64,000 bases of DNA from Bispira polyomma. Its lineage: Eukaryota. Positions 16,983-60,955 of this stretch are shown here, piece after piece (the stretch's first letter is position 1; every line of letters begins with the position of its first letter). The position numbers and the translations under genes are program-made. The DNA is taken from positions 35,898,001-35,962,000 of the forward strand of contig OZ287752.1 of assembly GCA_965649765.1 (NCBI GenBank), read 5' to 3'. Below the pieces are notes generated by a model. The model was not told the DNA's origin, made no database searches, and was given only the letters and a program-made list of their open reading frames with translations.

Positions 16983-17002
16983 CTGAAATTACATGGTAAG
17001 AT

Positions 17003-19770: not shown

Positions 19771-21009
19771 CTATTTGTTTGGGTTAAGCCCTGTTTCCAT
19801 CTGTTTGGATGAGTTAGCTTTGTAGCATTTAAACTCCGGGTGTTGAGATTCCTTATGTAGAACTGTTGAACAATGCCAGCACACGTGTTTGTACTGCCCG
19901 TGGCATGCCTTATGTGAACATTTGCCGTTATTAAACAGCTTGCAAATCATTCTAGCTGCTGTTGAATTAGTAGGTAAGTTAGAAAACGTGGAGGTTCCGT
20001 TTCCCTTTGTGTTCACCATTGCCGTCTGGGAAGCGCTCAGGCGGTTAAGCGCCCATTGCGTCGAGTCGCCCCGAGAGAGCCGTCCTTCCTCTAGTTCCGT
20101 CATGTTAAGCGTCCATGCGGTTCTTACTACTTCCCATGGTAGAGATGAAGCATCTCGTAAAGCCAAAACAACTTGTTGGATTATCTCACGTGAAACTATA
20201 GGGTCAGTTACCTGGAGGGCGTTGGTTAGCTGCCCGGCAGCCCACTGGGGTAGTGATAAGTCATCATACGCAGAGCGTTTCTTGGCCGATCCCCCAGTGC
20301 ATCCCTCGTTGGGCCATCTTAATTTTGGGTTACTAATGGGTATGTCTGTAGAGTTAAAACGGCCAGATTTCTGCCTGAGAACAGCCTTACCTTGTTGGAA
20401 CACTGTTTGTGCCTGCATGTTGTACTCAGCTAACTTCAGGTTGATCAGGGCCTGGACATCCGGTAATGACTTAAGTACATCCAGTCGTGGAACTATGCCA
20501 TCTGATGCATAGTCAGATCTGCCCGTGGCGCCGAGTCCTTTCTGCTGTGTAGTAGCCAGCGTCGTCGCTCCCGTGTAAATGGTGGGTTGAGTGGAGAGAG
20601 CAGTACTGTCCTGTGATACTGCTGCCTTAGTGGTTTCTTTCGCCTCGACTCTGTCTAGTCGCCGAGTCAGCTCCGCATTGGATTGCTCCAGCCTCCTAAG
20701 AATCCCGAGCATTTCGGATTTGTGGCCCGATGGAGGAGGGTTCACGACTGCTGGAGTAGGCTGGTGCTGTGTATATTGAAGGGGAAGAGCTACAGCCGGG
20801 TTCACGAGGCCCAGAGTTTGGTTCTGAACGTTAATCGGGGACGCTAGTTGTGAAGATAAGACGGTTCCGAATCCCAGATTGGTGACAATACTGTCATCCA
20901 TGTTAGAGTTTAGTACCTTTGTTTTTGATGTCTTCTTCTGAGCCCTAGTTTTCCCCCCTACTGTAGCTGGTGTCTTCTTGGTAGAGCGAAGCTTCTCTGA
21001 TCGCCCCAT
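19771..21009 (-). CDS. Gag of element A (likely start MGRSEK at 21009)
   Basis: Coiled-coil-like segment, WPNE and YDDLSLPQW motifs shared with C gag, C-terminal CKLFNNGKC...HVCWHC...H....C finger; the upstream 37 codons are T-rich and UTR-like. Confidence 0.85.
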   Translation of the reverse strand: MGRSEKLRSTKKTPATVGGKTRAQKKTSKTKVLNSNMDDSIVTNLGFGTVLSSQLASPINVQNQTLGLVNPAVALPLQYTQHQPTPAVVNPPPSGHKSEMLGILRRLEQSNAELTRRLDRVEAKETTKAAVSQDSTALSTQPTIYTGATTLATTQQKGLGATGRSDYASDGIVPRLDVLKSLPDVQALINLKLAEYNMQAQTVFQQGKAVLRQKSGRFNSTDIPISNPKLRWPNEGCTGGSAKKRSAYDDLSLPQWAAGQLTNALQVTDPIVSREIIQQVVLALRDASSLPWEVVRTAWTLNMTELEEGRLSRGDSTQWALNRLSASQTAMVNTKGNGTSTFSNLPTNSTAARMICKLFNNGKCSHKACHGQYKHVCWHCSTVLHKESQHPEFKCYKANSSKQMETGLNPNK

Positions 21010-23932
21010 AACAACAATCATATATAACACACACATAAAATAATGTAGCAATATTAAAAACAAACAAGTGTATAAAAAAACTAAAATACTAAAAATGTAA
21101 AAATTCAGTGATGCCTTCATAAACTTGGCAACTTAAAATGTATGTGTTTCTTCACTGAATCTTATTCCAATATGGAGGAGCCCTAGCTTTTGGAGGGAAA
21201 ACTCTTGGTAAAGAAGCAATTTCATTGGTCAGCATTATGTGGGTGGACAGAACGAATGTTGGTCAGTTCTGCCTCCAGGGATTAAGGTAATGACAACTTT
21301 AGTGAGACAACTGAACCATCAGACCCCTGCTGGGTCGTGCTGTGCACACTAACCTGGAAACATGATTTTTTTTAGTTTTAACTACTACTTGCCAAACCTA
21401 GCACCCATTTAGAGAAGCATAGAAAAAAACCCACCATGGGTCAAATTAAAATTACTTTTGAGGACAGCCTTCTTTGTAGTCTGACCTCATTTTAAAATCA
21501 GCATTTTAAAAGCTCTATTTAAAGTAGAACTTTAAATTAAATTCACTTCAATTGTAAACGCCATATTAATTTAGCAGTTGGGACTTTGCTTAATAAAAAA
21601 AAACTTTAGAACAAGAGATTCTTAGTTCTGTGCAACAGAAAGAAAGTGGTTCTTGAATCTCAATATCAAACCTGAAAAAAAAAACAAAAAACATTTTTTA
21701 ACTCAAACAAATTTGATCTTCATCAAGCGACAACTGTGTATACATTTTTGCTCCACAAAAGTTTTTCTCAATGAGCATTGTGAGAGTTGAATTAGGCGTA
21801 TATTTGAAACTAGACTTGCTTTCAAGTCTTTACTGTTGGTGAAACACTGAATGACTGCTACAAGTTCCCATTCTGTTCATGAAGGGTCAGCACTAGTGTT
21901 TTTATAACTGCCAGCTTCTTCATTTCATTCTAAAAGTAACTTCAATCCACAGAGAGATATAGTTTGAAGGACCTTGCACAAGGTCCAATTTAAAACAAAT
22001 ATAAAACAAGTATTACAAGTAGGTATCACATGACTCGTACATTCCCAATCAACATCAGTTAATTAGATACAGAATTACGAAGTCAATAGATTTAGTGTAG
22101 CTTGTGATTATGTTACAAATGAAGAAAGCCATATTATTCCGTCCTAATTACTTCCTCCTCCAAGGAGGTTATTTGGCCTGTTCTAGTGATACGGTTTGTT
22201 TGTTTGTCACCATGTTTACACACGAAAACTATTGAACCGATTTACATGGCATTTGGTGGAGGTAGAGGTGACATTCATGTGTTAGGAGAGAATTCATTAA
22301 ATTGGAATGGAATTGAATCTTGCCAAAAGGGAATATCCAGGAATTGTTTTCACATTTAAACACTGTGGCACCTTGGCGGATGTATACATTCGATTGTGTG
22401 CTCTTAAAGTTACATTAAAGGAGTATCTCCCTATGGATATTACAGGAACCTGATAGTTAGTGCTTTCTGTATTTGACAATATTTATTTATGATACAAGCA
22501 ATGACACAAACAATGGATAAACAAGCTTTTAAATCCACAAAGAATGCCACAATTTCTTTAATGCCACAATTTCTAGACATCTAGTTTGTCAGATGCGGAC
22601 TACTAAACCATAAATGGATCAGAATAGATTAGTTAATGTGTTTCTGTATAAAATAAATAATTTGTCTGAAAAGTATTCCTTTTCAGTAACCTATTAGTGT
22701 GTGTTAAATACAACCTGATTAAATTTTTCTTGTCTACGGCATGTAATGTATAATGTGAAAACTATTTTGTATTATTTCCCATGCTATTTATAACCTTATT
22801 TATGAACAGACACAGATCTGAACTCCGACATCATCCGTGCAGACAGTTCACATTGGTAATACACAAAGTTTACTTTACAGAGGTCCTCTGGAAACTGGCC
22901 AAATTGTAACTAAAACTGAAAAATATACATGTATCATATTATGTACGATACCCTAATTGACAGTTACAACAATAAATGACATTTTATTTGTGTTTTGTAG
23001 GTCAACAGAGGCAAAAGTCTTACCGCAGTGAGAAAGTGGATACAAATCATTTTTTTAAAAACAGTCCTTGGAACCCCTTTGTGACGTTTTGGTGTGGCGA
23101 CATGGTTAAAATCTCCTGCATTTAATTTCCAAGTAACAAACACTAAAAGATCTTAAAAAAGTCAGTAACCATTTGTGACCTTTTCTATTATTGACTACAA
23201 GTTTCATTTAAATTAGACCCTGTTTCCTCGCCTAATACAAAAGGAAGGACAGAGGGATAAAAATAAAGTTTTTTAAAAGGACAGATAGCCACATTTTTCT
23301 TCTCCTTGAAAGACATTATTGGGCTAATTTGCTGAAAGAAGGAAGAAAGGCGAAAAAAATCCACTACAAAGGAATCATTGCCAACAGTCATGTCTCAAGA
23401 GTGCCGTGCAATGACATTAGCCAAAATATGGATTATGTAACAGGCTTTTTCACAGACACAATCTGTCAACGTCTCTTGTACAGGAACCAACAAGCCTTGT
23501 AATTGGCCAGTTCAAATGGATATTGTTTCCTGTACCTAAACTGTAAGAATAGGTTTTTTTGGCTTAACACATACTTACTATGAGAAAAAGTGATTGATTC
23601 CAAAATTCCACCTGGAATATATGTCTTTATATAGGATTGCCTGGAACAAGTGTCATGCTAAGTGAGCAAGCCACATAGATAGTCACACAATACAGAAAAA
23701 AACCCACATAGAATCAATGGTAGAAGTTAAACTCCTACACCGCCCTCAAAGAATTACAAGAGAACCTATTAAGTGTGTGTAGACAAGTTGCGCTGATAGT
23801 GTTACTGAATCTTTCCCCATAGCTACTGTTACCAGTTAACTTTTTTTCTCCGTGAACCCACAGCACACACACACAAATCCCTCTATTCAGAACGCAAAAT
23901 TGAAAACAGAGGCATCTACAAGGAGTTAAAGC

Positions 23933-25048
23933 ATGCAGAGGGACTATGCATTGGGGACCAATAACCAGTCATTAACTTACCATGTGTCTGTCTTTCCAAC
24001 GGTTTCTTTCAGCAATGATTCCATGACAACTCCAATTACTGCCAGTGGCAATAATACAACAGAAGGCAAAGAGGAGGAGCAGAGGGCTTTGGCAGAAATC
24101 ATTGTGGTTGGTTCTATCTTGATGCTCTTGGTCCTGGTGACCATACTGGGCAACCTTCTGGTATGTGTGGTAATCTGGTCCAATCGCAGACTACAGAACC
24201 CCACCAACTACTTCATCCTCTCCCTTAGCCTCTCAGACCTCTCTCTTGGCATATTGGTGCTGCCTTTTAGTACAATCAACAGTATCCTTAATACCTGGCC
24301 ACTCGGACCCGTCTTCTGCAACATCTACAACTCCTTCGACGTCATGCTCTGTACCGTGTCCATACTTAACCTCTTCGCCATCAGTCTGGACCGGTATTAT
24401 GCCGTCACCTACCCCCTGCGCTACGTGCAGCGTGTCAACTCACAACGGGTTTTCTGGGTCTGCATGGGTATATGGATATTCGCCTTCATCTTGGCATTCA
24501 TACCCATTCACCTGGGCTGGAACACCCCTGAAGGGTCGGTGCAGAACTTCAAGAACCCTCGGCAGTGCATGTTCCTGGTAAATGCGGTATACGTCTTACT
24601 GATCTCCATAGGGACCTACTTCATACCACTGATCATCATGTGTACAGTTTATACCAAAGTTTTCTACATAGCCAAGAAACAGGTGAAGAACATCAACAAA
24701 ATGACTCAGATTGGAAACCACCTGCACAATGGGAACTCCAATTCTAAAAGAGATCAAAGACTGGCCAGCGATACCAAGGCTACATTTACGCTAGCCTCTG
24801 TTGTGACTGCTTTCGCTATGTGCTGGGTTCCATACTTTATCGTCTTTACCATCAAACCTTTTATGTCTGGTCCAATCAGTCCGCACCTTGATCTTTTTGT
24901 ATTGTGGCTGGGCTATGTAAATAGCCTTCTCAATCCCTTTCTGTACGCATTCCATAACACAGAATTCAGATACGCTTTCATGATGGTACTGTGTAAAAAG
25001 ATGGCAGAGAAATATAAAGACAGATACTCAGATGCATCTTATGTGTAG
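23933..25048 (+). CDS. Class A aminergic GPCR, histamine H2 receptor-like, intronless CDS (371 aa; alternative start MTTP)
   Basis: Seven hydrophobic segments; GNLLV, SLSLSD, DVMLCTVSILNLFAISLDRY (Asp3.32), IHLGWN, CWVPYF, LWLGYVNSLLNPFLY; DVMLCT, IHLGWN and LWLGY are characteristic of vertebrate HRH2. Confidence 0.92.
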   Translation: MQRDYALGTNNQSLTYHVSVFPTVSFSNDSMTTPITASGNNTTEGKEEEQRALAEIIVVGSILMLLVLVTILGNLLVCVVIWSNRRLQNPTNYFILSLSLSDLSLGILVLPFSTINSILNTWPLGPVFCNIYNSFDVMLCTVSILNLFAISLDRYYAVTYPLRYVQRVNSQRVFWVCMGIWIFAFILAFIPIHLGWNTPEGSVQNFKNPRQCMFLVNAVYVLLISIGTYFIPLIIMCTVYTKVFYIAKKQVKNINKMTQIGNHLHNGNSNSKRDQRLASDTKATFTLASVVTAFAMCWVPYFIVFTIKPFMSGPISPHLDLFVLWLGYVNSLLNPFLYAFHNTEFRYAFMMVLCKKMAEKYKDRYSDASYV

Positions 25049-31769: not shown

Positions 31770-34700
31770 GTCCCCTGGCATGACGGCGACAGCCCCCTCA
31801 GTTCTGGTACCAGGCTACTGGGGGGCCAATTAGGCCACCTGGGGTCAGGAGGACAAGTATACAAGGGTTTGGCGCCAACCAGGCGCCATCATTAAATTTT
31901 ATACATTCTTAAAGAAGGAGTGTTTTTACAATTGGGGCTTTACTACCCTACTTCTGTTTTAAACTTGTCTTTAAAATTGTTTTAAATAAAATTGTACAAT
32001 ACCTAAGAAGGAATACCAGTGTAATGGGTGTTTAGGAAAACATGAACGGTCTGTAGGAAGACCTTGTCGGTTGTACTTAGAGGGCAGCATTGCTGATGAA
32101 GTGACCACAGTTGATCCAGCTCCTTCTGATGACTTGTCTGACTCAGTGTCAGGGCAAATACTACAACAGCTGCAGTCGTTAAACAAGAAAATGGAAAGCA
32201 TGGATCAACGCATCCAGGTCACTGAGGCAGCGCTGTGCTCACCCAGCGCCAGTAAGGCGAGTACAAACCCTTCTTTACCCAGTGTTAATCTTGCTAGTGT
32301 AACTACACCTGTAACTTAAGCCGTGGTTCCCTTGTTAGACTTCCTGCGAACAAATGACCAAATACAGGCTCAGGTTGATCAGTGTTTAGTCCAGTTACAG
32401 CTACTCAATGAATTTACAGGAGGTAAACTGAAATCCCAACGACGCGGTACTGAGGCGCCAATTAAGAAAAGCATTGACTGGCCTTAAAATTTTGTATTGT
32501 CTGGGGCTAAAAAGACTAGGCCCACCTATGATGATTTGTCATAGTTCAATTTATCCCAGGGTTCATCAGATGTGTTCAGGAGCAAAAAACACTGGAAGTG
32601 CAGGAAGCAATGCTTGAATATGTAGCTAATTTGATGGACGATGCTCATGATTTTTCCTGGGAAGCGGCCAAAACGTCTCATGCCATTTTGCTCACTAATA
32701 TGGAGCTTAACAGCCTTAAGTGGATGGATGTAGAAAAAATTTCGTCTGTCGTTTTTTCCGGGAAGGAATCTGTAAATTCAATGCCAGCCACCGTACTTTC
32801 GGTCAATTATTTAAACATTCTTGTGAAAACTGTGAGGACTCACATCAAACCAAGCTATGTAAAAAACCTGTGGTAAAAAACTGAGTGGCCACTGCAATAC
32901 TGCAGTGGGCACAACAAGTCGAGCTGATGTAGTTTATTCTAGAGTGGTTTACAACTCACAGTTTAGGGATTTTTAATTATGTGATAAATTGTGTGATAAA
33001 ATGTGTTTTAAAAATTCTATGTGTGACCAAAATACAAAAAGGTCCTACAAGGACGTGGTGGTAGACAGAAAGAGTGGTAATTCCCAAGTATTTACCAGCA
33101 ATCCTGTGGTGGGCAATAGCGGGAGATATGGCTGTGTTAAATGTAAACAAAAATATGTCAACAAGTTGACAGCTTCTAAAGTAAAGGGACATGTTTTCAA
33201 AAGAAGTGTGAAATGCACACAACAATCTCCCAGTCAGGCCTATACCAAGGGGTTGCATGCCAACAACAATTCAGCCAGTATTGTTTTCCGTTCTGCTTGT
33301 ACCAAAAAAGGTGTGGACTTGGGTAAGGAGGACAATGGAGATGGGGTTGGTGGCTTTAAATTGCCTCTCCATAACAAGTTCTCTGGTTTAGCCTATTGTG
33401 TGGATAATGTGGGTATTGGGGATTGTGTGAAATTTAAATTTAATTGGATATTTAACGTCCACTCTAGTATCTGTTTAGGTTATATTGGGATGGGTAGTTG
33501 GAAACGCTGGAGGAAACACTGCATACAGTTGATCAAGGTTCTGCAGGGGATTGTGTGGAAAGTGTCACATCCATACAGCTTCCAAGCTCAGGTGAAACAA
33601 TAGACTATGTTGACAATGTAAACAAATCTGGGGGGGGGGGGGGGGTGTTTGTTCAAGTAATACCAAGAGGTCAACCCATTGTGACAAAGCAAATAAAACA
33701 GACTTAATTGACTGTGACGATAAGTATGGGTTGGACATGCATAACCACCCTGACAAAAGACAACAATTAAAAAATGCCAAACAATGTGACACTTACAAAT
33801 TGTGGGGCACTCAAAATCAGGAGAAGTTTGGGTTTATTCCATTGACTCAATGGGGCCCCCCAGTTAGTGACAACTCAGGTTACAAGTTGCCTCAACACAC
33901 ATTGACTCTACACCATTGTCTTGCGTTGGATGGGCGCCCTAATTATAGGGGCCTCCAGCTGCCTGTTATAACCCAACTGAATGCCAGTGTGTGGGCAGAC
34001 TACTTGTGGGGTTATTGGGATTGGGAACTCCCTCTACTAATCAAGTTTGGTTTTCCCCTCGACTGTGACAATGCACATGTGTTTAGGTCAGAACTTAAAA
34101 ACCATTCGTCTGCTGTGCAATACCCTGAACATGTGTACTATTATTTGTGGGAAGAGTGTGAGCTAGGTGCTATTTATGGCCCTTTTACTAATCCCCCTGT
34201 TGATCAATTACACACCTCCCCTTTTATGACTTGTGACAAGTCGAGTTTGATTAACCGTAGAGTGATAATAAACCTCAGTTGGCCAGAAGATCATTTGGTT
34301 AACGCTGCAGTATGTCCATCATCCTATTTGAACAAGGAGTTTGTGCTTACTTATCCATCTATAGACACTATAACTAGTCAAGTCATAGTCATGGGTAGGG
34401 CCTCTCTGATTTTCAAAGCAGACATAAGTCACGCCTTTAGACATGTGACCATGAACCCTAAAGATGTCAATTTGTTGGGACTTTATTGGGATGGGTACTA
34501 TGTGGACGGTTCACTCCCCTTCGGATATAAGCATGGCTCAGCCATATTTCAGAAAATTTCTGATAGCATACACTTCATAATGAAAGGCGAAGGTCACCAT
34601 ATCGTAAATTACATCAACGATCTCTTATGTTGTTCTACCCTAAGTCAGAAAAAACTAGTCCCCCCCAGCGACTTGAGTTACTTGTGTGGGCATTGAGATA

Positions 34701-40750: not shown

Positions 40751-42895
40751 TTAGATTACTCCTCTGTAAGCTTCATTGAACAAAATTGTTTTAATAGCAC
40801 ATTTAAAAGTTGAAAGTTCTTTAATCATCCTGGTGTCATTTGGTAAACTGTTCCATAACTTTGGAACACTGTATGAAAATGATCGATCCCCAATGGTTTT
40901 GTAGAGGGATTTTGGTATCATTAATAGGTAATCACTACTTGATCGTAAGGCCCTTGATGGTCTGTATAAGCTTAGCATATCCCTGATGTATTGTGGTGCA
41001 AGTCCATTTAAGGCCTTAAATGTAAGCAACCAAATTTTAAACTTAATTCTTTGCTGTATAGGCAACCAATGTAGTTCATAGCAAATGTAAGAGATGTGAC
41101 ACTGTTTTGGGGTGATCACTCTAGCAGCATTATGTAATATCCTCTGCAGTCTGTTCAGATGATAGCTGGGAAGTCCAAACAAAAGAGAGTTGGCATACTC
41201 CAATCTGGAGGTAATCAAGGAGTGGACTAAAGGAGAACAAGCATCTTTGGTTATAAACTTTCGACTTTTTCCAATGTTTCTCAGGTGAAAGCTTGTGGAC
41301 CTGCATATTGAAGATATTTGGTCAGTCATGCACATAAATTCATCAAAAATCGCACCAATGTTTCTTGCACTGCTTGTTGTTTTGACTAAAGCATTTCCAA
41401 AAGTAACAGTCTCAACTGGGAGTTTTTTCTTCAGATATGGAGATTTTAATAAAAGGACCTCCGTTTTATCCTTATTTAGTTTTAATTTATTTACTGACAT
41501 CCATTGACTTATTTCAGTGACACAATTCTTTACTCTTTCCACAGCATCAGATAGAGTGGTTCCGCAGGTAAGTTCAAAGGCAATATAAAGTTGGGTGTCA
41601 TCGGCATAGAAGTGGTACTGCAGTTTATGTTTGCGAATTATGTCTCCTAACGGAAATGTGTACACAGTATACTCAATAGGACCAAGAATAGAGCCTTGTG
41701 GAACACCAAATAGCAGTGATCTAGTTTCAGATGTATGGCCATCTATGAGCACAGCCTGGGTACGGTGTTGTAGATAGGACGTAAACCAGTCCAGAGCAAT
41801 GGATTTGATGCCTAAACGTGTTTCAAGTCTCTTTCTCATTTTATCATGGTCTATGGTATCGAAAGCAGCACTCAGGTCCAAAAGTACAAGAAGTACACCT
41901 TTTTTGGAGTCGAGATCTCTCAGAATATCATTATAAACCTTGACAAGAGCTGTTTCGGTACTGTGACTTTTCCTGTATGCGGATTTAAGAGGTTCATACA
42001 GTTGGTTGTTGTTGATATGTGCCACTAACCTATTACAAATTGCTTTCTCAACAACTTTGGACGGAAATGGAAGATTGCTGACAGATCTGTAATTCTTCAA
42101 AACATCTTGATCAAGATTAGGTTTTTTCAAAAGTAGCTTGACTAGAGCGTGCTTTAAGCTTGTAGGGAATTGACCAGTTTCCATAGATAGGTTAACGATT
42201 TTTGTTATAATGTTCAAAAGTGGAGACCAGGGTTAACACATTGTTTTAGGCATAGGATCTGTAGCAGTGGTAGAATTTTAAGTGAAACTGATGATCTTTA
42301 AAATTTCTGCTTCATCTGCAGTTCTGAATGAAAACATTTGATTTCTCACTTCTTCCTCTTCCACTTCCACATTATCTGTTGTGGTAGCTTCTACATCAAG
42401 TTTTGAACGAATGTCCTTTATCTTCTGTATAAAGAAATTATTGAAAACTTCTGTTATGTCTGAACAAGAATCGTTATTTGGCAGTTTAAGTCTTGGTTTA
42501 TTTTGCAGTAGATGGGATACAACATTATATAGCTTCTTTTGATCTCCATGACAATCTTCTATGATATTTTGAAAGTGTGATTCTTTTGATTGTCGAATAA
42601 GTTGAAAACATTTATTTCGTAGATCTTTAAAAATTTGTCTATCAATTTCGAGTTTGGTTCGACGCCACTTTTGTTCTGCCTTCCTTTTTTCTGATAAAGC
42701 CTTTTTAATTCCTGTTGTCCACCATGGTTTTATATCTCGGAGAGTTATTAAACATGTTTTAGATGGTGCATGCTTTTGTAGTATTTCAGAAAGTGTGGAG
42801 TTGTACTGATCGATTAAATGTTCTAGGTCATCTGATGGTGAGGTGACTAACTGTGACAGATTTATATCCTCACATAATAAATCATAGTTGATGTT
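40751..42895 (-). mobile_element. 5'-truncated LINE (L2/CR1 group) ORF2, RT largely intact, disrupted at ~42220-42280
   Basis: KNYRSVSNLPF, HSTETAL, LLDLSAAFDT, GVPQGSILGP, YADDTQLY, HWLPI, GDRSFS..PKLWNSLP; no endonuclease domain or ORF1 present. Confidence 0.95.
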
Positions 42896-45800
42896 TTGCC
42901 CTAGGATCGAACGTATCGCCATTAGAATCAGACGGATCCATATCTCCAACCATCACGTTTGAATGTCTAAAAATAAAAGTCGGGACTGTTATGGTAAAAT
43001 CACTGACAAAAGGTCTTATATTCTTCTCGACCACCCCTTTTGCCTCGTTTTTGGCCTCCAACCTATACGTTTTAATCGGCCAGTGTTAGGACAGAGCTGA
43101 GGTGAGATAACACCTATCAAACAGAACTTAATGACAATCCGATCGAACTTATTCATAGCAGCCGACCTTCCCGTTTTTACAGGTTGGGGAGGTAAGTTGG
43201 TGTACTTTTAAAAAATATCAAACATGTTGAATATCCTTCCCAACCACCGCGACCACCCTGTTTTTGCCACCAGATCTATACGGACAATATTCAAAAATAA
43301 TTGTGAGATTATATTTTAAAATTTTTTTTTACATAGGAAACTTTCCTTCAGATATAAATATTTGAAGAGCTTTAAGTCACGGTAGCGTGGATTGAAGTTT
43401 TACCCTTTTTTCCACGGCGTCGTAAAAAGAGGAAAATATATACAGCATAATAATATTACGTAATAAGATATTTAATAAAGCATTTATTAAATTTTTTTAC
43501 TTTACACTACGGTATCCTTTGATTTTAGTCAATTTTATTATTTTACCGACAGACATAATTATAGTAATTTTTGGGGACGTGAAGCACGTATATACGAGCG
43601 ACAATGGAAGAATTTAATGCATATTAGGCAATCTATCATCGTGGAAAGCACCCCGAAGTACCAACATCCGTATAACGATATTTAGCTGTCTGACCTTTGA
43701 CTCTGCAAGAATCGCCAGCATATATTTTATCCCTTTAATAGTCGAATTAAGTCTTAAATCTACATAATCTTGTTTGTATCTTGAAGCATATAACTTATTT
43801 TGACGTATAAAGCTATGAATTGCTGATTATTTATTAATAACTCAGAAATTACTGAAGGTAAAAATTAAGTGAAACTATGGTAAAAAAGCTTATTTCATTG
43901 CAATTATTGTACTTTTGTTGCATCAAAATTCGTGAAGAAATGAGATATTTTAATTCAAATACAAGAACCCTTTTAAATAGTGGTGGCGTTTTGGAGGTGG
44001 CGTTTTCGTTTGATGGCTTTCCGACTGGTATCTATATTACCCTATATCTACACATAAAGCTCTTCGATAAATATTAGTTCAACTATGGCCAGACAATTGT
44101 ATTGTTTGATTCGTTTGATTATACATGAAAACTGGACCATATAATAATATTCACAACCATCTTATTTACAATTATCGATAATTTATTTAAAAGGTATAAC
44201 AACATTCATTGTTCAAGTAATTTGTTTATTTTTTTGTTCTTCCTGAGATGTTGATTTCTCACAGCAAGATCATAATAGAAGTTGCTGTGTCTCCTTAAAT
44301 CTTTGACATTAGTACAATTTTTAAATGGCTCTAGTGTCCACATTTGTCACATTGTCCCAAGTTGATGAATTGCATGACTGAATATGGACCCTTTGGTTTT
44401 GGTGTTAATTGTCTGCAACAAAAGCAACAAAGCTAATTCTCATCAAATGTAGAATGTGCACTATAATCTCCAGAACTGTTAGAGTTGTCCCGAACCAAGT
44501 TCATATGTGAAGAATACGGGTGATTGATATTTAACCTTGGCAATGGTACATTTACTTCACCTTTTTGTGAGCTTGATTTTTCTACCAAAGACTTGCTTAC
44601 TGAGGTGGTTGCTTTTGACTTTACTCGTAATCCGACATGCTAGAAATACTAGCAAATCTTTATCTTCAGTTATACATATTTCCCTCATACATTTTTACTC
44701 AAAGTGCTAGAGAACATTATGACTGGCTATAATTTTGTAAATGTTCTTGGAGCTGTTTCCAGCAGAACATTCTACTTGTCTACTGAAGTGGTTCACCGAC
44801 TCAATCAAAGGCTGCAAGATTTTTATCGAGATTTTCTTTGCTGTTTTTAGTTTCATATGTGGTTTTCATTTTACTTTATATTTTAAAAAGGGCTATTTTG
44901 TATTTCATCAAAGGCATTAGGGTTTTATGGAAATATTCTCATTTTTTTCTGAATGACAACTGCAGCTTCTGGTGTGAGAGTACCATACGACTTTGATGCA
45001 ATCTCAGCCATGTTCAACTTTCTAATAACTTGGCCACGGTCTTTAACCAAGAATGGGATGGACTGTTTAATATTTTTTGCAATACAGCCCAACCTAGTAG
45101 GTGTAATGACCTGTGGAGCTTTTACTTGTTTCTAGTTTATACGTTCATTATAATATGTTGCTATAACAACTGCATCAGATCCTGAGCCCTAACATTTTGC
45201 CAAATAATGGAGTCGAAATTTTGTGTTCAGATACATATTTGCATGCTTTAGATAATTTACACACTACATATATTTTGGGGCATATGAAATGCACACCATA
45301 TTAAACATTAAGCTGCATTGAAAACTGAACCCATATATTTACTATCTTTGTTGGACTTTTTTGTTTTAGTTTTTTTCTGTAAGATCAAATAGATAACAAT
45401 GAAACTATCCGTTTTGTTTCCTCTTTTGCAAATAGTTCAAACCAGCATATTTTGCACCAAAAGCCCAAATGGTCTTTAAATACAATATATGTTTGTTAAA
45501 ACACCTTTTACACCAATTTTACTATAATATAGACGGAAATAGCAGTATTATCACAAAACTGTAATAGCCAATACTCATTTATTTAAAAAACAACAACATT
45601 TTTATCATGACTATTTTAAGTCTGCAAAACCAGAAACTTAATTTTATTACCAATATACTGTGACGGATCCGAGCGGCTGTGATCTCACAAACTGGTAACG
45701 GTGTTCACAACTAACGTCAGATTTCTTGTGACACCCAAGGCTCTTAGGCCTTATCACCTGCGCAGGAATTTAACCGGATTCACTGCTGAATCCCAACAGA

Positions 45801-52683: not shown

Positions 52684-53664
52684 CTGAAAAACAATACAGG
52701 GAAAAGTATATTTATACTTATGTCATTTCATTTACAGTGTTATACCACGACAGCCAACAAGTGTTGTCATTGGCGTCCAACCAAATCCATGAAAGCCTTA
52801 CATATTATTTCTCACATGGCGGCCAACTGATAATCGCCTAATAATATAAATCTGACGCCCCTTACTTGCGTCGGATTGATTGCTTCCAGCCAATTCATGA
52901 AGACGTTACATATTTCCAACAAAGCAGCGCCATTTCCAGAATGAAATGAACATTGTGCTGCACCTGATAAAAAGAACGGCCAAATCACTTGAGAGTTTCA
53001 GTTTTATTTAAAATTCTGGTAAAATCCAGCAGACTAACTGAAAGTATAGTGTTTCTGAACAAATATGATTTCAAATAATGTCCACATATTTGTACTCTCA
53101 TTAATAGTGTAGCGATCCTTGTTTCAAACTGAATAATGGGCTGATATATTTTACAGTTTACGAATTGTTCCAAAAGTACAAAACATTTTAAAAAAGTATT
53201 TTTTTATCTGTGATATGAGTATTTTTTTATTGATATATTTAGGTTAATCCATTATAAACAACAAATTTGAGTTGAACAACACTGTAAGACAGCCCATATA
53301 CATAAAATAAAGACGTAAATGTTTCCTAATTCTATTTTTTAAAAAGATGCACTGGAATTGAGATTGTTACTATTGGTAATTTTTTTACTTATTAACAGAT
53401 TCTTGAAAAATGTTAAAAGTGTTAATTAACCCTTTCCTGACTGCTTTCCTCAACTGCCTTAGTTACTGACATTCCCCTAACTGAAGAGAGAGACTTGAGG
53501 ATGACCATTTATCCATGCCCCTAAGGAACTTTAGCTTGCCACTGGGGATAAGATTCTTAAGATCCTTTTAAAGCCTTAACCAACTTAATCTTCAACAGGG
53601 CATGCCTGTGGTGGGCTGACGCCCATGCGACAGCCCCCCTCAGTTCTGGTGGCAGGTCACTGGG

Positions 53665-53735
53665 GGGCCAATTAGGCCACCTGGGGTCACGGGGGCAAGT
53701 ATAAAAGGGATTTCCGCCAACAGGCGCCATCATTA
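53665..53735 (+). promoter_or_regulatory. Putative internal Pol II promoter of element C (CCAAT, TATA, Inr)
   Basis: ggCCAATtag ~53668, TATAAAAG 53700-53707, TCATT 30 bp downstream; same layout in B (31826-31893, with TATACAAG). Confidence 0.6.
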
Positions 53736-53839
53736 GTTAAAAACAGTTCATAGATACAAGTGTTTTACAATTGGGGCTTTTACTACCCAGGGCTTTTACT
53801 ACCCAGATATTGTTTTACATTTTAATTGAATGTGTAGTC

Positions 53840-54835
53840 ATGCCTAAGGAATACCCGTGTAGTGTATGTTCTGGTCGGCACGAACGTCCAGTTGGGAAGA
53901 AATGTAAATTTAATCCGTTGGACAGCGTCGCTGATGAGGTGGCTGCCATTGATCCCGCTGTGCCTGCTGTTTCTGATTCCGTATCTAGTTTGATACTTCA
54001 ACAACTGGTCGTGATGAATGAAAAGATGGACAGCATGGATCAACGAGTACAAGCTACTGAGGCGGCGCTGTGTAAACCCAGCGCACAGGCATGTAACACA
54101 GTTTCTAAATCTGTATCTAATGTCCCTAGTGTTAGTGAACCAGTGTTTGAGGCCGTTGTGCCCTCCCTAGATTACCTGCGTTCAAATTCTGGCTTACAGA
54201 GTCAGGTAGACCAGCGCTTGCTGCAACTGCAACAACTCAATGATTTAACGGGAGGTAAACTGAAATCCCAAAGAGGTGGCGCGGAAGCTCCCGTTAAACG
54301 TCATGTTGATTGGCCACAAAATTTTGTCTTATCTGGTGTAAAAAAGGTTAGACCCACTTATGATGACCTTACTTTGGTTCAGTTCGTCTCCGGGTTTGTT
54401 CGCTGTACGCAAGAGCAAAAAGAGTCCTCTGTCCGCGAGGCCATGTTGGAATATCTGGCATGTCTTATGGATGACGCCCATGATTTTTCGTGGGATGCCG
54501 CCAAAGCCGCTCACGCCATTTTGTTAACCAACATGGAAATGGACCGATTGAATTGGACGGATGTCGAAAAGGTCGACCGGGTAAGGCGCGCTCATGCACA
54601 GCGTCATGTAACGTCCTCAGCTAGTGGGTCTGGCCTTTCTAAAAGCAATGTTGGCAGTAAGGGTAAAACCTCGGTGAAAACAGCTGGAGTAAATTGTCGA
54701 TTCTTCCAAGAAGGAACGTGCAAATTTGATGCCAGCCATCGCACTTCTGGACAGTGGTTCAAACACTGCTGTGAGAGCTGTGGTGGCACGCACCAAACCA
54801 AGTTGTGCTCCAAAAAGTCGGTGTCAAAAAACTAA
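53840..54835 (+). CDS. Gag of element C (start MPKEYPC at 53840)
   Basis: N-terminal CxxC-xxx-H...C knuckle, coiled-coil-like segments, WPQ/YDDL motifs, C-terminal CRFFQEGTC...H...HCCESC...H....C finger. Confidence 0.9.
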   Translation: MPKEYPCSVCSGRHERPVGKKCKFNPLDSVADEVAAIDPAVPAVSDSVSSLILQQLVVMNEKMDSMDQRVQATEAALCKPSAQACNTVSKSVSNVPSVSEPVFEAVVPSLDYLRSNSGLQSQVDQRLLQLQQLNDLTGGKLKSQRGGAEAPVKRHVDWPQNFVLSGVKKVRPTYDDLTLVQFVSGFVRCTQEQKESSVREAMLEYLACLMDDAHDFSWDAAKAAHAILLTNMEMDRLNWTDVEKVDRVRRAHAQRHVTSSASGSGLSKSNVGSKGKTSVKTAGVNCRFFQEGTCKFDASHRTSGQWFKHCCESCGGTHQTKLCSKKSVSKN

Positions 54836-54860
54836 GGGGCCACTGCAGTATTGCAGTGGC
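54826..54860 (+). promoter_or_regulatory. Predicted -1 ribosomal frameshift signal (gag->pol)
   Basis: A_AAA_AAC heptamer directly before the gag TAA, 6-nt spacer, perfect 9-bp hairpin GCCACTGCA-gtat-TGCAGTGGC; conserved in B at 32875-32907. Confidence 0.75.
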
Positions 54861-54866
54861 TGCTAA

Positions 54867-57353
54867 GAAACTTGCTCTAGAGTTGTATATAATTCTACTT
54901 TTAGGGATTTTAAACTGTTTGATCATGTGTGTTGTAAATATAATGTGTGTACTGGACCCCGAGTTAACAGGTCATACCGGGACGTGTTGCAACAGGGCCT
55001 TGTGGTTACTGATACCAAGATTTGTGGAAACCGGGAAATGGGAAAAGTTAACACTGTTTCTGTTAATAAAACTCCCCAAGGTAGCAAACTCGTGTTCCAT
55101 AATTCATCATTGCACAAGGTGTCGGGAAGGAAGCATTCACCCGTGGAGGTGTTAAATACACCAGCTGACAGGCGACGTGAGAAAACAAATCACCAAAGGG
55201 TGTTAAGAAAAACACCTTTGGGTGGTGTGAAAACATCCGTGAATAGGGGGGTCTGTAACAATGCAAACCGGGTGTTACAAAACAAACCAATTGCGTCCAA
55301 AACAATTGAACTAAGTGATGGCAAAGGGTGCTCTAAACTTCTGGTTTCTCCGAGTGTGAAAACAATTGGCGCGGGTACCACTCCAAGTAATGCTAACAAT
55401 AGTGGGTTTCGCCTTCCCATTCATAACCGGTTTAGTTGTTTAGACATTCCTGATGTAGAACTTCCTGACTCGAGTGACACGTTAGGTAAGGTCGATTTCA
55501 CACCTAATCCACCACCTAACAAGAGATCTAACCCGTGTGATGACAAGTATGTACTGGACCTCTCAGGAGGCCTTGATAAAAGACAGCGCTTAAATGCAGC
55601 TAAAGATAATGTGACCTACAAGTTGTGGGATATACAGAATAGTGGAAAGTATGGGTTCATACCAACTAGTTCCTGGGGTACCCCAGTGATTGATTGTTCC
55701 AATAACCAATTGATCACAGACGTGTTTACACTACATAAGTCCCTTAAATTGGATGGGAGACCAAATTATAAGGGTTTACAAGTCCCCATACACACCCAAC
55801 TGACGGTCCCTGCCTGGGAAAAGTACTTAGCGAATTATTGGGATTGGGAACTCCCCTTACTGATAAAATTCGGATTTCCTCTTGACTGTAATGAAGAACA
55901 CGAGTTCAAGTCTGACTTGAACAATCATGCTTCAGCCAATCAATATCCTGAACATGTGAACCATTACCTGAAAGAAGAATGTTCTATGGGTGCTATGTAT
56001 GGACCTTTCGTCCATCCCCCAATTGATGATGTGCACACATCCCCATTTATGACTAGAGACAAATCAAGCTCGGTTAACCGACGAGTCATAATCGATCTGA
56101 GTTGGCCCATCGGTCATTCGGTTAATGCAGCCGTGTCATCAAGTTCGTATCTGGACAAGGAATTTGTACTTACTTACCCTTCCATAGATGACATAACCCA
56201 ACAAGTGTTGCAAAACGGTAGGGGCTCCTTGCTATTTAAAGCGGATATTAGTCGCGCATTCCGTCACGTTACCATAGACCCCAGAGACATCAATCGCCTG
56301 GGCTTATACTGGGACGGCTACTATGTCGACGGCTCGTTGCCCTTTGGCTACCGACACGGTTCAGTGAATTTTCAGAGAATTTCTGACGGTATAAGGTATA
56401 TAATGGAAGGTGAAGGTCATCAAATCACCAACTATATAGACGATCTGTTATGTTCTTCTGTTCCCTCAAAAATCTATAAAACGTACCACCGACTGCAGGC
56501 CCTTTTGTCCGAGTTGGGTTTGACTCTCAGCAAGAAGAAGCTGGTTCCTCCAGCCACCCGGGTAACCTGCCTAGGCATAGTTATAGATACAGTTCGGTTC
56601 ACTACATCGATACCAGAGGACAAACTAGCTCAGGTTCAAAAAATATGTGGCAATTGGAGTGATAAAAAGCAGTGTACTAAGCGGGAGCTCCAATATTTAT
56701 TGGGTTCTTTGCTATATATTTCTAAATGCGTGAAGTACTCACGATTTTTTCTGAATCGGATGTTGCAACTCCTCCGAAGCAATCACCACAAAAGAAGTAT
56801 GAAAATTAACCCTGAGTTCAAAAAGGACCTTAACTGGTTCATTGAGTTTCTCCATAAATACAATGGGGTGACATTTTTTCATCATGCCCCCATTACTGAC
56901 ATTGTAGAGTTGGATGCCTGCCTAACAGGCATGGGAGGAGTGTATGGCAAACAAGTATATTACCTTCCCATTCCTGCTGCTATGCAGAAACATAATATTG
57001 CTTCATTGGAGATGCTTAACATTCGTGTGGCTTTGAAATTGTGGGGCAAATACTGGCAAGGACGTAGACTGTTAATTAAATGTGATAACCAGGCTGTTGT
57101 AAGTGTCCTTACTCATGGTAGAACTAGAGATAGCGAATTAGCCCTGTACTCACGGAACATATTCATGCTGGCTAGCCAGCTCGATGTAGAGATACAGGTG
57201 GTTCATATTCTAGGAAATGACAATACCACTGCTGACCTCTTGTCTCGCTGGACAAATTCAATTAAGGATAATGTTCTCTTACAGGAGCTGGTGGGCAATG
57301 TCCAATGGTGTGCCGTGACAGAGGACCACTTACTGCTTAATCACCACATTTAG
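54867..57353 (+). CDS. Pol of element C: ~250-aa leader + reverse transcriptase + RNase H
   Basis: Frame open from 54867; RRVIIDLSWP, FKADISRAF, LPFG, YIDD, CLGI; RNase H DACLTG, LEM, CDNQAVV, HILGNDNTTADLLSR. Confidence 0.95.
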   Translation, partial: ETCSRVVYNSTFRDFKLFDHVCCKYNVCTGPRVNRSYRDVLQQGLVVTDTKICGNREMGKVNTVSVNKTPQGSKLVFHNSSLHKVSGRKHSPVEVLNTPADRRREKTNHQRVLRKTPLGGVKTSVNRGVCNNANRVLQNKPIASKTIELSDGKGCSKLLVSPSVKTIGAGTTPSNANNSGFRLPIHNRFSCLDIPDVELPDSSDTLGKVDFTPNPPPNKRSNPCDDKYVLDLSGGLDKRQRLNAAKDNVTYKLWDIQNSGKYGFIPTSSWGTPVIDCSNNQLITDVFTLHKSLKLDGRPNYKGLQVPIHTQLTVPAWEKYLANYWDWELPLLIKFGFPLDCNEEHEFKSDLNNHASANQYPEHVNHYLKEECSMGAMYGPFVHPPIDDVHTSPFMTRDKSSSVNRRVIIDLSWPIGHSVNAAVSSSSYLDKEFVLTYPSIDDITQQVLQNGRGSLLFKADISRAFRHVTIDPRDINRLGLYWDGYYVDGSLPFGYRHGSVNFQRISDGIRYIMEGEGHQITNYIDDLLCSSVPSKIYKTYHRLQALLSELGLTLSKKKLVPPATRVTCLGIVIDTVRFTTSIPEDKLAQVQKICGNWSDKKQCTKRELQYLLGSLLYISKCVKYSRFFLNRMLQLLRSNHHKRSMKINPEFKKDLNWFIEFLHKYNGVTFFHHAPITDIVELDACLTGMGGVYGKQVYYLPIPAAMQKHNIASLEMLNIRVALKLWGKYWQGRRLLIKCDNQAVVSVLTHGRTRDSELALYSRNIFMLASQLDVEIQVVHILGNDNTTADLLSRWTNSIKDNVLLQELVGNVQWCAVTEDHLLLNHHI

Positions 57354-57435
57354 ATATTGCTTTGTCTGGTTGCATGGTATTATGTTGATCAACCTTTACA
57401 AATGTTACTTTGTCTGCTTTGTGTTTGTGTTATAG

Positions 57436-58274
57436 CTAGAACTCCCCTGCAGCAGTTATTATATCTAAATGCAACGAAGAAGCTTCACCTGGCCTTCTGC
57501 AGGTCTACAGACAGATCTTATACTGCGATGTATAGGGTGTACCAAGCTTATGCATCCTTCTCGGATCTGCCTTGTGACCAGGTGACAGCTATTGATCTTC
57601 TTGCTTTTTTAGAATTGTTACACTTTAACTCTGTAAAACCTGCCCATATGGCCAATTATTTATCTGCTATTAAAGCTAAGAGTATTGTATACAATGTGCC
57701 CATTCATGCCTTCAGTGACCCTCGCTTGGCTTACTATCAAAAGTCTGTCCAATTAGCTGCCCCCTTAAATGTTCAGCTCAAAAAGATTATAGACATACCT
57801 CTTCTGACTAGTATTGTCAATGTCTCCAACACCACTTACATGGGTCCTATCTTTACAGCTGTGTATTTGGTCAGCTACTTTTCCTTCCTGAGGTTATCCA
57901 ACTTAGTACCTCATTCCTGTCTTCAGTTTTCTGCTTTAAGACATCTATCAAGGGCTGATGTTATGTTTCACAGGGACAAAGCTGTCCTTTTGGTAAAATG
58001 GTCCAAAACAATGCAGATTAATAATCAGATTAGACTTATTACTATCCCACGTTTGGTGGGTTCCCCTCTTTGCCCTGTGGGGTCACTGCAGGCAATTATG
58101 GCTCTTACTCCGTCTGAACCTAATTCACCCTTATTTCAATTGAGAGACAAATCTCACTGGGTTCCTCTTACTGACACCCGTGTCCGCAGGCATTTCAAAA
58201 CGATACTTGCCAGGCTCCAGTTGCAGGATTCTGGCCTCACACTGCACGCTTTCCGACGTTCGGGTGCACAGTAG
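57436..58274 (+). pseudogene. Tyrosine recombinase of element C, C-terminally truncated
   Basis: FLRLSN, WSKT, LCPV and HAFRRSGA present; the downstream HGxW and catalytic Tyr seen in A are missing. Confidence 0.9.
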
Positions 58275-58337
58275 TTCATCCAGCATTAGTAAACGTAGAC
58301 ATTAACCCTGGATAAGACACATAGTATGAAAGCTAAC

Positions 58338-58481
58338 CTTTGAAGCTGATTCGGCCTTCCTCCTTGCCAGCTTCTTTGATCATTTGGCGGACATCCTCCT
58401 TGGTTACATCCTCCCCTAGACGATACATCACCTCAGATAACTCTGACTCTGTGATAAACCCATCACCATTCTTATCAAAGA
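58338..58481 (-). CDS. Calmodulin-like gene, exon 5 (EF3 and degenerate EF4)
   Basis: Acceptor ttttaatttag, donor AAG|GTTAGC; VFDKNGDGFITESELSEVMYRLGEDVTKEDVRQMIKEAGKEEGRISFK. Confidence 0.92.
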
Positions 58482-58916
58482 CTAAATTAAAAATACAACA
58501 TGTACTAAATTAACAGTGCTAAGGTCCATCAATTCTTAGAAATGTCAAGTACAACTGCTTTCCTCAATACTTTAAAATCTCATGTATTACTGAGTTTTTT
58601 CATAAATAAAGTACAACAGTTTTCGAAATACTTTAAATTCTCTTGCAAATTCAAAATCAAAAATGCCAATGTCTTTATAGATATTGTCAAATCCAATTTC
58701 CACTGCTTTGTTAAATATCTTCAAAGTCCAGTTATCACCGCCCTTGTAAATAATCATACATTAAGTACCCTGATTTTGTGACTTGAAAATTTTCATCAGC
58801 AATTAAGTTTGGGCTATATTTGCCAATGTGTTTGAGCAAGAAAATTAATCCCTAATCAAAAAGTTTTTTTTTCATATAAGAGGAAAAGGCTAATTATGAA
58901 AGTAACTTCAGCAAAC

Positions 58917-59018
58917 CTTGAAATGTTTCCTTAATGATGTCATATCCGTCTAGGTCTGTGCCCTGTAATGTATTGGACATCATGGACATGAACTCATGGA
59001 AGTCAATCATTCCATTAC
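58917..59018 (-). CDS. Calmodulin-like gene, exon 4
   Basis: Acceptor tcctttcctcag, donor AAG|GTTTGC; GNGMIDFHEFMSMMSNTLQGTDLDGYDIIKETFQ. Confidence 0.92.
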
Positions 59019-60020
59019 CTGAGGAAAGGATATGAGTAATTGTGGATAATAGTGCAATAATTTAACTGATACTGCTTTCCTCATCCTTATGGATTATGAT
59101 ACTCTGCATAGTAGTAGACAAATTGGACAGTGTAGCTTGAAAGTTGCTACTCCAGTAGATAGAAGAGGTTACCACTAGTTGTTATATCCTAGACAAAAAT
59201 TACTTCTTTCAAGAACAAAATATATATCTCTTTAGCCTGGCCAACCCACCACCCCTAGCATTTTTCTCCCCTGTCGATGTGTTCACTGGTTACAGCATTT
59301 TTCTTGCCACTATTCCGTTTTGGACAACAAGCACTTGAGAGGATTTACACCAAACGGATACTATACAAATTTAACAATAACAAATTTATTTATTATGAAT
59401 CAAAATATTAAAAAAAGATAATGTTGGGCTTCTAAAAATCTCTGAAGTAGTCTGCTGAACTAGCGAGAGGTGAACACTAGTGAGTTGTTTTCTAGCAAGG
59501 CAAGTGGTTTGATAGTTTTTTATGGTGAACTTCGTGGAATTTCGTGGCTGTTCTTCACTATTCTTGCCTCCTCTTAGGTACTCCTGCCTAGTATAAATTC
59601 AGGATTATGCTACAAAATAGCAATTTTCTACAAAGCTATGCCACCTGGGGCCATCTTTGGAACCTTGTCTCCTTATATTTCTTCTAAATACACGCGAATA
59701 GGATTTCTAACCCAGATATGATAGGAGATGATCTTTACCAATCGTGGCTCAGATCTGGAATTGTGGGGCCTTGATATGATTACTCGTTGACAGAGCCATA
59801 GATATCTAATGTTTAAGTTGACTTTGGGAAAAGTTAAAGAATAATCACCCTAAATTTAGTGGCATGTGTATTTATTTTGCAAAAACTTTTTTAAAATAAT
59901 CACATGATTCTCATAAGTTACTGATCCTGTTCAGACAACTTAATCCTCTCAATATAACATAATTATCTGGTAATAATAATGTCATAAAAATGGGATGTAT
60001 GGAGACAAGACATAACCCAC

Positions 60021-60164
60021 CATCTGTGTCTATGCGCTGTAACATATCCAGTACTTCAGCCTCTGTGGGGTTCTGACCTAGTGACCTCATTACACGACCC
60101 AGTTCCTTCGTGGTCACCGTTCCGTCGTTGTCAAGGTCAAGGTGAGCAAAGGTCTCGGTCAGCT
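60021..60164 (-). CDS. Calmodulin-like gene, exon 3 (144 bp; EF1 and start of EF2)
   Basis: Acceptor tttcctccacag, donor ATG|GTGGGT; [48 protein letters not shown]; same size and phase as the canonical calmodulin exon. Confidence 0.95.
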
Positions 60165-60955
60165 CTGTGGAGGAAATATTGAGACTAAAAAAGTTACTTC
60201 CAGTATGAGTTAGTCTGGAATTCCACATATTTATAAAATCATATATTAGATATGTTTACTGTATCCAGAGTTGAGTATAAGCTAATTATACGTTCGGGCC
60301 TCTGGGTAACTATGTAAATGGCGGTCTCTACTATTGGGTCATAACACCCGTGGCAGGCTAAAGAACTTTAGCGACACTGATAAATGGCCTTTCTCAAATT
60401 TTTGTCTGCAGCTACAAGGAATAACAGTTTTTTTGTGTTGGCAGGCATTCTCTTTAATTCAAGAATGCAGTAAGATACAAACCAACTTCTGATACCAAAA
60501 ATGTCATCAACTTTGTCTTCAGTGCCAACTACAGCTAACAGCCAACAGTAAATGTTATTTGGTCAATGTTACTTTTGCTACTCGAGGATACGATCCAGTG
60601 ACAGATTGCTGACAGTTTAATTGGTTATTTGAGTCACTATCTATCTACTTAAACCTGAGATCGAAACCAGGTCCTGTACAAACTAGGCCCCAGTAAGAGG
60701 TTCTATAGGATATATCATATTTAAAAAATTTAAAACATTGCTTAATTTCTTTGTTTATTTCTATCTGGGGTTTAAATCTTATATATAGCCAGGTGTCGAA
60801 GTATATTTCAATAGTACAAGTAGTAGTTATTTACAATTAGATATATTTATAGATAAACTTTAAGCAATTTGTGGCAAAAAGCAGTCAAGTACCAATAGAG
60901 GTGTTTAGAGCTGTAAAGCTATGGGGTCATGTTTTTAAAAACAACTGGTTGTTAC

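Follow-up and report, generated by a model that had tools for sequence, protein, structure and literature searches.

How is a recombinase translated when its reading frame has no conserved start codon? The question is raised by element C, one of three related retroelements in a 64,000-nucleotide stretch of the Bispira polyomma genome (NCBI GenBank assembly GCA_965649765.1, contig OZ287752.1, positions 35,898,001 to 35,962,000, forward strand), called the window below and numbered from its first letter. Element A lies on the minus strand at ~16.0–21.0 kb, B at 31.8–35.0 kb and C at 53609–58267. C carries gag, a pol frame with reverse transcriptase (RT) and RNase H, and downstream of these a tyrosine recombinase (YR). 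In the literature that we searched in part, we found no explanation of how the often start-less YR open reading frame (ORF) of DIRS-order elements is translated, and likewise none of how the enzyme reaches the cDNA without a protease-cut polyprotein. Our genomic searches covered ~1.04 Gb, in which the window belongs to the contig labelled C5.

A predicted spliced route to the recombinase

The best explanation, and in our judgement a very probable one, is that YR is made from a spliced RNA predicted to encode the N-terminal part of Gag fused to the recombinase. A single promoter in the terminal repeat A would then serve three proteins. Unspliced RNA would be translated into Gag, recoding at the gag stop would yield Gag-Pol, and in some of the RNA the host spliceosome would join a donor within gag to an acceptor past the pol stop, both in phase 1. 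The spliced ORF would comprise the N-terminal half of Gag and the whole recombinase, ~467 aa in the family of C, and the gag ATG would be the only conserved start of YR. The features concerned are the following; a slash marks a splice border.

53609–53771, plus strand: 5' terminal repeat A1, 163 nt, with a TATA-like TATAAAA at 53700–53706; its boundary is common to 20 of 20 close copies, and it recurs after the B repeat in copies L040, L047 and L048
53840–54835, plus strand: gag ORF, 331 aa, with an N-terminal zinc knuckle, coiled coil, helices, helical domain and C-terminal Cys/His cluster (ORF and AlphaFold model)
53840–54254, plus strand: predicted coding part of exon 1, 138 codons and 1 nt, ending two residues past a predicted helix (117–137)
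54252–54260, plus strand: phase-1 splice donor GAG/GTAAAC, its silent positions frozen between families
54255–57435, plus strand: predicted intron of 3181 nt with the C-terminal half of gag and all of pol; 3156–3243 nt in 20 close copies
54826–54860, plus strand: slippery heptamer A_AAA_AAC, gag stop and GC hairpin, a predicted −1 frameshift signal into pol; found in 8 of 10 divergent C-like copies and in B at ~32875
54867–57353, plus strand: pol frame with linker, RT and RNase H and without a methyltransferase domain, ending 34–35 aa past the RNase H motif ADLLSR
57354–57435, plus strand: non-coding spacer, pyrimidine tract and phase-1 acceptor TAG (57433–57435); spacer 78–82 nt among copies, YAG conserved
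57402–57404, plus strand: in-frame ATG, not conserved in frame on comparison of close and divergent copies
57436–58267, plus strand: YR exon, 3'-truncated in C, with its first ATG past the acceptor at 57528; 329 aa from the acceptor in full copies
32420–32428, plus strand: homologous donor in element B, which is degraded and ends before YR
20385–20393, minus strand: homologous phase-1 donor AAG/GTAAGG in element A, at Gly207 of gag (sequence comparison)
16983–17000, minus strand: phase-1 acceptor of element A, AG at 16984–16983; A's own YR is frameshifted ~50 nt downstream

An earlier note on this DNA had proposed the splice from the window, and its coordinates hold. In C the donor GGAG/GTAAAC lies at 54254/54255, where codon 139 begins with G54254 (phase 1), and the acceptor AG at 57434–57435, where a codon of the YR frame begins with G57435 (phase 1). 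Between the two sites lie 3181 nt, as given, and joining them leaves an open frame with a Gag part of 138 codons (417 aa in C). Also correctly located were the same donor in B (32422/32423) and CAAG/GTAAGG in A (20391/20390, minus strand); A has in addition an acceptor, TTTCAG/G, at 16983/16982 (minus strand). Across the 20 close copies the joined frame measures 467 aa in 16 and 463 aa in one, and stops interrupt it in three. Two statements of the earlier note need amendment. YR was said to have no ATG until 57528; an in-frame ATG is present at 57402–57404, in the pyrimidine tract, 34 nt before the exon. The AG-free tract of 80 nt exists in the subgroup of C but is not a general trait, being 38–41 nt in most close copies and 13–65 nt in divergent ones.

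The family of C is young, with 31 near-full-length matches of 93–100% identity among 32 candidates scored. C itself is a damaged copy: it stops at 58267, so that the last 50 YR residues with the HGTW and WRY motifs are lost, and it lacks 13 nt near 54873, just 3' of the gag stop, that are present in 20 of 20 close copies. Further families are numerous among the matches in the genome, at 65–78% protein identity to that of C. Element A heads a second, A-like clade, whose YR is 31% identical to that of C's family.

Selection on the donor

For the donor we compared 20 divergent C-like and 20 A-like gag stretches, hand-picked from 121 and 151 matches, and numbered codons from the donor by anchoring on a downstream protein motif. 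The donor GT is present in 19 of the 20 copies in each clade. Conservation among the 20 close copies alone is weak evidence, because most Gly codons are invariant there.

The divergent copies are more informative at silent sites. Among 21 distinct C-like contexts the third base of codon −1 is always A (21/21), while the encoded residue is Gly, Ala or Arg; since this base is fixed although the residue varies, constraint on the protein does not explain it. The third base of codon 0 is T in 21/21, and Lys+1 is AAA in 21/21, whereas Lys+3 is AAG in 10 and AAA in 11. The remaining 19 codon positions between −10 and +11 are all variable. The 18 distinct A-like contexts present the same picture, with Gln−1 as CAA (17/17), Gly as GGT (15/15) and Lys+1 as AAG (18/18), and mixed codons at neighbouring positions (Lys+7, 7/9; Gly+9, 6/7/3). 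Two A-like copies have exchanged Gly for Ser yet retain the GT. The fixed Lys codon differs by clade, AAA in C-like and AAG in A-like elements, and either fits a donor. No GGC, GGA or GGG codon, any of which the earlier note had named as contrary evidence, was found at the donor Gly: it is GGT in 20/20 Gly codons of the distinct C-like contexts and in 15/15 of the A-like ones. The string AGGTAA occurs at only two sites on the sense strand of C, one of them the donor.

The acceptor and the missing start codon

The acceptor was examined in 20 C-like stretches from 129 matches and 20 A-like stretches from 128 matches. A phase-1 YAG stands at one position in 18/20 C-like and 20/20 A-like copies. 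Within this genome the donor GT is kept in 38 of 40 copies and the in-frame phase-1 YAG likewise in 38 of 40; invariance of GT and AG was one of the checks proposed in the earlier note. The residue spanning the junction varies (Asp, Ala, Gly, Glu), and its first base is always G. The T content falls from 0.52 before the acceptor to 0.20 after it in C-like copies, and from 0.45 to 0.20 in A-like ones.

Upstream of the acceptor the YR frame is closed, with in-frame stops at 12–120 nt in all in-frame divergent copies but one. An upstream in-frame ATG was found in three of 20 C-like and two of 20 A-like copies, at four different offsets. Of the full-length close copies, 13 of 20 have the ATG at 57402 in frame; in two it is absent from the frame, and five have another ATG at −52. 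The first downstream Met of A-like copies is at codon 10, 25–27, 37 or 40, or is absent from the stretch read. No start codon is kept in frame across families; a conserved ATG for YR would, according to the earlier note, have spoken against the splice. Within C's family, 1-nt deletions have arisen three times in the stretch between pol and the acceptor (seen in 14, 7 and 5 of 20 copies) and not once in the YR exon.

A GT donor, a YAG acceptor preceded by a pyrimidine tract, matching phases and selection at both ends are together what is expected of a spliceosomal GT-AG intron. Judged by comparison of sequences, these splice signals are real, under selection and clade-wide. Splicing itself, and the pairing of the two sites, we infer from their matching phase and from the lack of any other conserved start. 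The reading is supported by the retention of the pair in two clades with 31% YR identity and in other datasets.

Expression of Pol

Pol appears from the sequences to be made by −1 frameshifting in C-like elements and by stop readthrough in A-like ones and in the loci L131 and L134, which come from another dataset. The C-like gag end consists of A_AAA_AAC, the stop and a hairpin, with the −1 frame open, in 8 of 10 divergent copies (one of the others is degraded and one unresolved) and in B. The A-like gag end reads TAG-GA with the zero frame open in 10/10 copies; in L131 and L134 the stop is TGA, with 830 and 650 codons open after it. Given these recoding signals at the gag stop, Pol would need unspliced RNA and no second acceptor. 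A donor of moderate strength would fit a need to keep most of the RNA unspliced.

The gag-pol border thus switches between a frameshift signal and a stop among related families (window 54826–54860; 19771–19773, minus strand; L131, L134, L136–L155). The linker before RT (54867–55600; 18823–19770, minus strand) is ~250–400 aa long and poorly conserved; it gave no Pfam match at the cut-off, and no protease was found in it. Close copies carry a 51-nt duplication in this linker.

The Gag half of the predicted fusion

An AlphaFold model of Gag built with 96 sequences (mean predicted local distance difference test score 82, predicted template modelling score 0.52) contains a coiled-coil helix at residues 46–78, helices at 110–137, an extended linker, a helical domain at 159–255 and a C-terminal Cys/His cluster. 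The donor, at codon 139, is predicted to lie at a domain boundary. As the cut falls right after the helix ending at 137, the fusion would keep and drop whole elements: the zinc knuckle, the coiled coil and the conserved helix pair would be kept, and the main helical domain and the Cys/His cluster dropped. Fold searches with Gag returned no Foldseek match at E ≤ 0.001 and a best Z of 4.8. A predicted complex of the Gag N-terminal half with Gag scored 0.02, in a run in which the alignment was not used, and speaks neither for nor against such binding. Any role of the Gag half is speculative; oligomerisation, particle entry and steering of integration are equally possible.

A broader proposal, which we hold tentatively and doubt slightly more than we believe, is that in this animal clade, and perhaps in Ngaro elements generally, YR is made only as a fusion to the Gag N-terminus, the Gag half being a module for particle entry or targeting. 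This would amount to a retrovirus-like expression plan of three tiers in a retroelement without protease. It would also explain why, in the Ngaros of Cafeteria, loss of gag (ORF1) coincides with a changed target preference, as described in the part of PMC8547959 available to us.

Related elements in other datasets and species

A metagenome scan returned five loci, of which four are YR retroelements, from two datasets, with 31–38% identity; the fifth, L135, is a short weak match and was excluded from this count. In each of the four, a pyrimidine tract and a phase-1 YAG occupy the position homologous to the acceptor, and no ATG lies in frame upstream. In both of those that include gag the donor is in phase 1 (CAAG/GTAATT and TCAG/GTAATA), at a Gly after the same helix motif. 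A search of viral contigs found no relative.

Database proteins bear possible traces of the same signals. Of 445 YR matches 120 were listed; 38 of these are long enough, and four of the 38 start past the junction. All 34 others, which extend across the junction, can be read as a pyrimidine tract followed by an NYA-GNN dipeptide. In front of the Gly, the residue belongs to the NYA set in 31/31, compared with 53% in the YR body, and residues with U-rich codons make up 133 of 168 before the junction against 132 of 272 downstream. On the Gag side, 74 of 154 homologues could be parsed by motif and 71 have a Gly in the linker after the helix; in 70 of these 71 a Gly there is followed by a residue that can have a codon starting with A (34.8 expected). 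In single-Gly linkers the next residue can start with A, as GT-A requires, in 50/50 cases, against 41% elsewhere.

No fused Gag-YR protein was found among the four matches to the Gag N-terminus, among the 120 of 445 YR matches listed (longest 354 aa) or in 155 Gag proteins scanned with a YR profile. Two long YR matches are both RT-YR and not Gag-YR fusions, and in P0274, whose match ends at residue 139, no YR follows. Wherever a source is listed, the database match is an ORF call on an ENA contig, in which a splice cannot show.

Points against and alternative explanations

Several observations weigh against the spliced Gag-YR fusion. The argument is drawn from comparative sequence alone, and within it the pairing of donor and acceptor is an inferred step. 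The donor GT has been lost in two copies, one C-like and one A-like, and the donor of C (GTAAAC) is only moderately strong. Two C-like acceptors are out of frame; in both the YAG is present and a 1-nt indel lies just downstream. The copies in one genome are related: at 85% identity they form ~8 C-like and 5 A-like groups for the donor, so that fewer than 40 donors are independent, and 8 and ~10 groups for the acceptor. In one large A-like family an ATG lies in frame 10 nt upstream of the acceptor, and in most C-like families the first downstream Met is codon 32 (ATG 57528). Two of the 128 A-like matches, and two database proteins, have YR in frame with pol. The counts across species derive from proteins and not DNA, and from the parsable rows only (38/120 YR, 74/154 Gag). 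Three runs of unrecorded kind from one study, which covered the element along its full length in the manner of genomic DNA, with contigs of up to 14–22 kb, do not bear on expression; the predicted joint was not among the 15 of 36 joints listed from them. The genome holds no deletion derivative with the exact junction, which the earlier note had suggested looking for: the junction has 0 matches, against 58 and 61 exact matches for the unspliced donor and acceptor 15-mers of C. This absence is compatible with packaging signals inside the intron, and the proposed splice draws no support from it.

The alternative that survives best, itself improbable, is that both splice sites are real but are not partners, the acceptor taking a donor from a leader, from pol or in trans, and the gag donor serving another product. 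A candidate partner does exist in a second phase-1 site, AG/GTAAGG, in the pol linker of C at 55485/55486. We rejected it as a donor, as it is unconstrained among close copies: the A at −2 is replaced in 5 of 21 and the G at −1 in one more. A non-coding leader would leave many families without a start, there being no Met in the 45 codons read in 4/20 A-like copies, and donor and acceptor are both in phase 1 in every family and in both elements with gag from other datasets.

Still less likely is that YR is made without splicing and starts at an ATG of its own, at 57402 or at 57528, through reinitiation or an internal promoter. The in-frame ATG of C at 57402, the retention of Met32 in most C-like families and the YR-only proteins issued by gene callers in other species all speak for it. 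The ATG at 57402, however, falls outside the YR frame in 7 of the 20 close copies, and these include the five nearly identical copies whose pol frames are longest. Were Met32 the start, the conserved Leu9 and Thr25 and the invariant Tyr29 would be lost, and A-like YRs lack this Met, as do several foreign ones. A start within YR also leaves the frozen silent sites of gag unexplained.

We give almost no credence to a Gag-Pol-YR polyprotein reached from pol by frameshifting or readthrough: a fungal Ngaro YR can share the RT-RNase H frame, according to the part of PMC3783388 consulted, and two single-ORF RT-YR proteins and the 2/128 A-like matches with YR open to pol are of this kind, but spacer indels largely refute it, with a pol-YR spacer of 78–82 nt in all three frames within one young family and of ~335 nt in L131; almost every divergent copy has in-frame stops 12–120 nt upstream of the acceptor.

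Classification and structure of the family

By domain content and repeat layout, C is a Ngaro-type YR retrotransposon of the order DIRS. In the parts of PMC4157794, PMC8547959 and PMC13465315 available to us, Ngaro elements carry gag, then RT/RNase H, then YR, all in one orientation; they lack a methyltransferase and have split direct repeats. The family of C shares all of these traits. YR lies downstream of RT and RNase H on the same strand, in place of a DDE integrase. Pol has matches to RVT_1 (E 5e-7), RVT_3 and RT_RNaseH in Pfam. Phage_int_SAM is matched by the YR of A and not by the truncated YR of C; a YR alignment that includes a full copy of C's family shows conservation of the Arg, HxxR, His/Trp and Tyr motif residues. 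No methyltransferase domain was matched in Pfam, and since pol ends 34–35 residues past ADLLSR (in L046, L131 and L134) there is no room for one. An assignment as PAT-like or DIRS1-like was rejected, as a methyltransferase is lacking and the terminal repeats are direct, not inverted with an internal complementary region.

The 20 close copies (L031–L050) have identical 5' and 3' boundaries. Split direct repeats in the order A1-ORFs-B1-A2-B2 were found in three of them, where B2 was read over its first 219–301 nt only; one copy has a partial A2 and 16 end at B1, and C itself is cut before B1. The family differs from other Ngaro elements in these B1 endings and in a spacer of 490–570 nt between A2 and B2. 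A further difference is that YR is published as a separate, overlapping or in-frame ORF, with no gag splice described in the portions of the sources seen.

The 16 copies finish exactly at the B1/A2 boundary, possibly through recombination between B1 and B2 or integration of a shorter circle. The A2-B2 spacer (L040:7126–7612; L047:7066–7637, oriented copies) has no long ORF. It contains a pyrimidine tract with CAG that resembles an acceptor and is present twice in L047 and L048. The position of the spacer downstream of the TATA-bearing A2 repeat makes a second, non-coding transcript possible. In L032 (162–727 and 7014–7915 of the oriented copy) a copy of the C family apparently sits inside an older, ~70% identical element of the same kind. 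In the Atlas, Gag look-alikes fall into clusters without names, most often from Basidiomycota and Chordata, which is a lead only.

Relation to known systems

Retroviral env and foamy-virus pol resemble the proposed arrangement in combining gag-pol expression by recoding with a spliced downstream ORF; translation of those products begins at an ATG of their own or of a leader, and no half of Gag is attached to them.

The closest parallels in the literature seen in part are two. In murine leukaemia virus (MLV) the SD' RNA joins a donor inside gag to an acceptor in pol, encoding P50 and P60, and P50 is packaged into virions (PMC10496198). Here too N-terminal Gag is brought in frame with integrase sequence by a splice. 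P50, however, is an accessory protein with no more than the final 116 aa of a DDE integrase, the full integrase coming from Gag-Pol, whereas in the family of C the whole YR, the sole integrating enzyme of the element, would depend on the splice. In the Ty1/copia element EVD of Arabidopsis, spliced and unspliced RNAs from one promoter are balanced (PMC5580714), as proposed for C's family; the EVD splice yields an excess of Gag alone, while that of the C family would remove pol and yield a catalytic fusion.

We found no description of a gag-to-YR splice in the literature searched, which was seen in part and lay outside the founding Ngaro papers and the Repbase and Dfam entries. The main texts of PMC3783388 and PMC3266345 mention neither splicing nor introns, and PMC8547959 does not mention splicing. 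An Ectocarpus annotation table gives YR as a separate ORF in 15 DIRS rows, with no note of a splice.

If the predicted fusion is made, the real recombinase would be ~140–200 aa longer than annotated, which would matter for expressing or modelling these enzymes. It would also provide a physical link between Gag and target choice, such as has been inferred for the Cafeteria Ngaros from deletion variants (PMC8547959, seen in part).

Other features of the window

Three further regions were labelled from their translations by eye. An intronless ORF of 372 aa at 23930–25048 (plus strand) resembles a 7-transmembrane amine receptor, and 40751–42952 (minus strand) holds the RT region of a degraded non-long-terminal-repeat retrotransposon. 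Directly downstream of the truncated end of C, exon-like pieces with EF-hand-like motifs lie at 58270–60200 (minus strand), and a host gene may cross this region.

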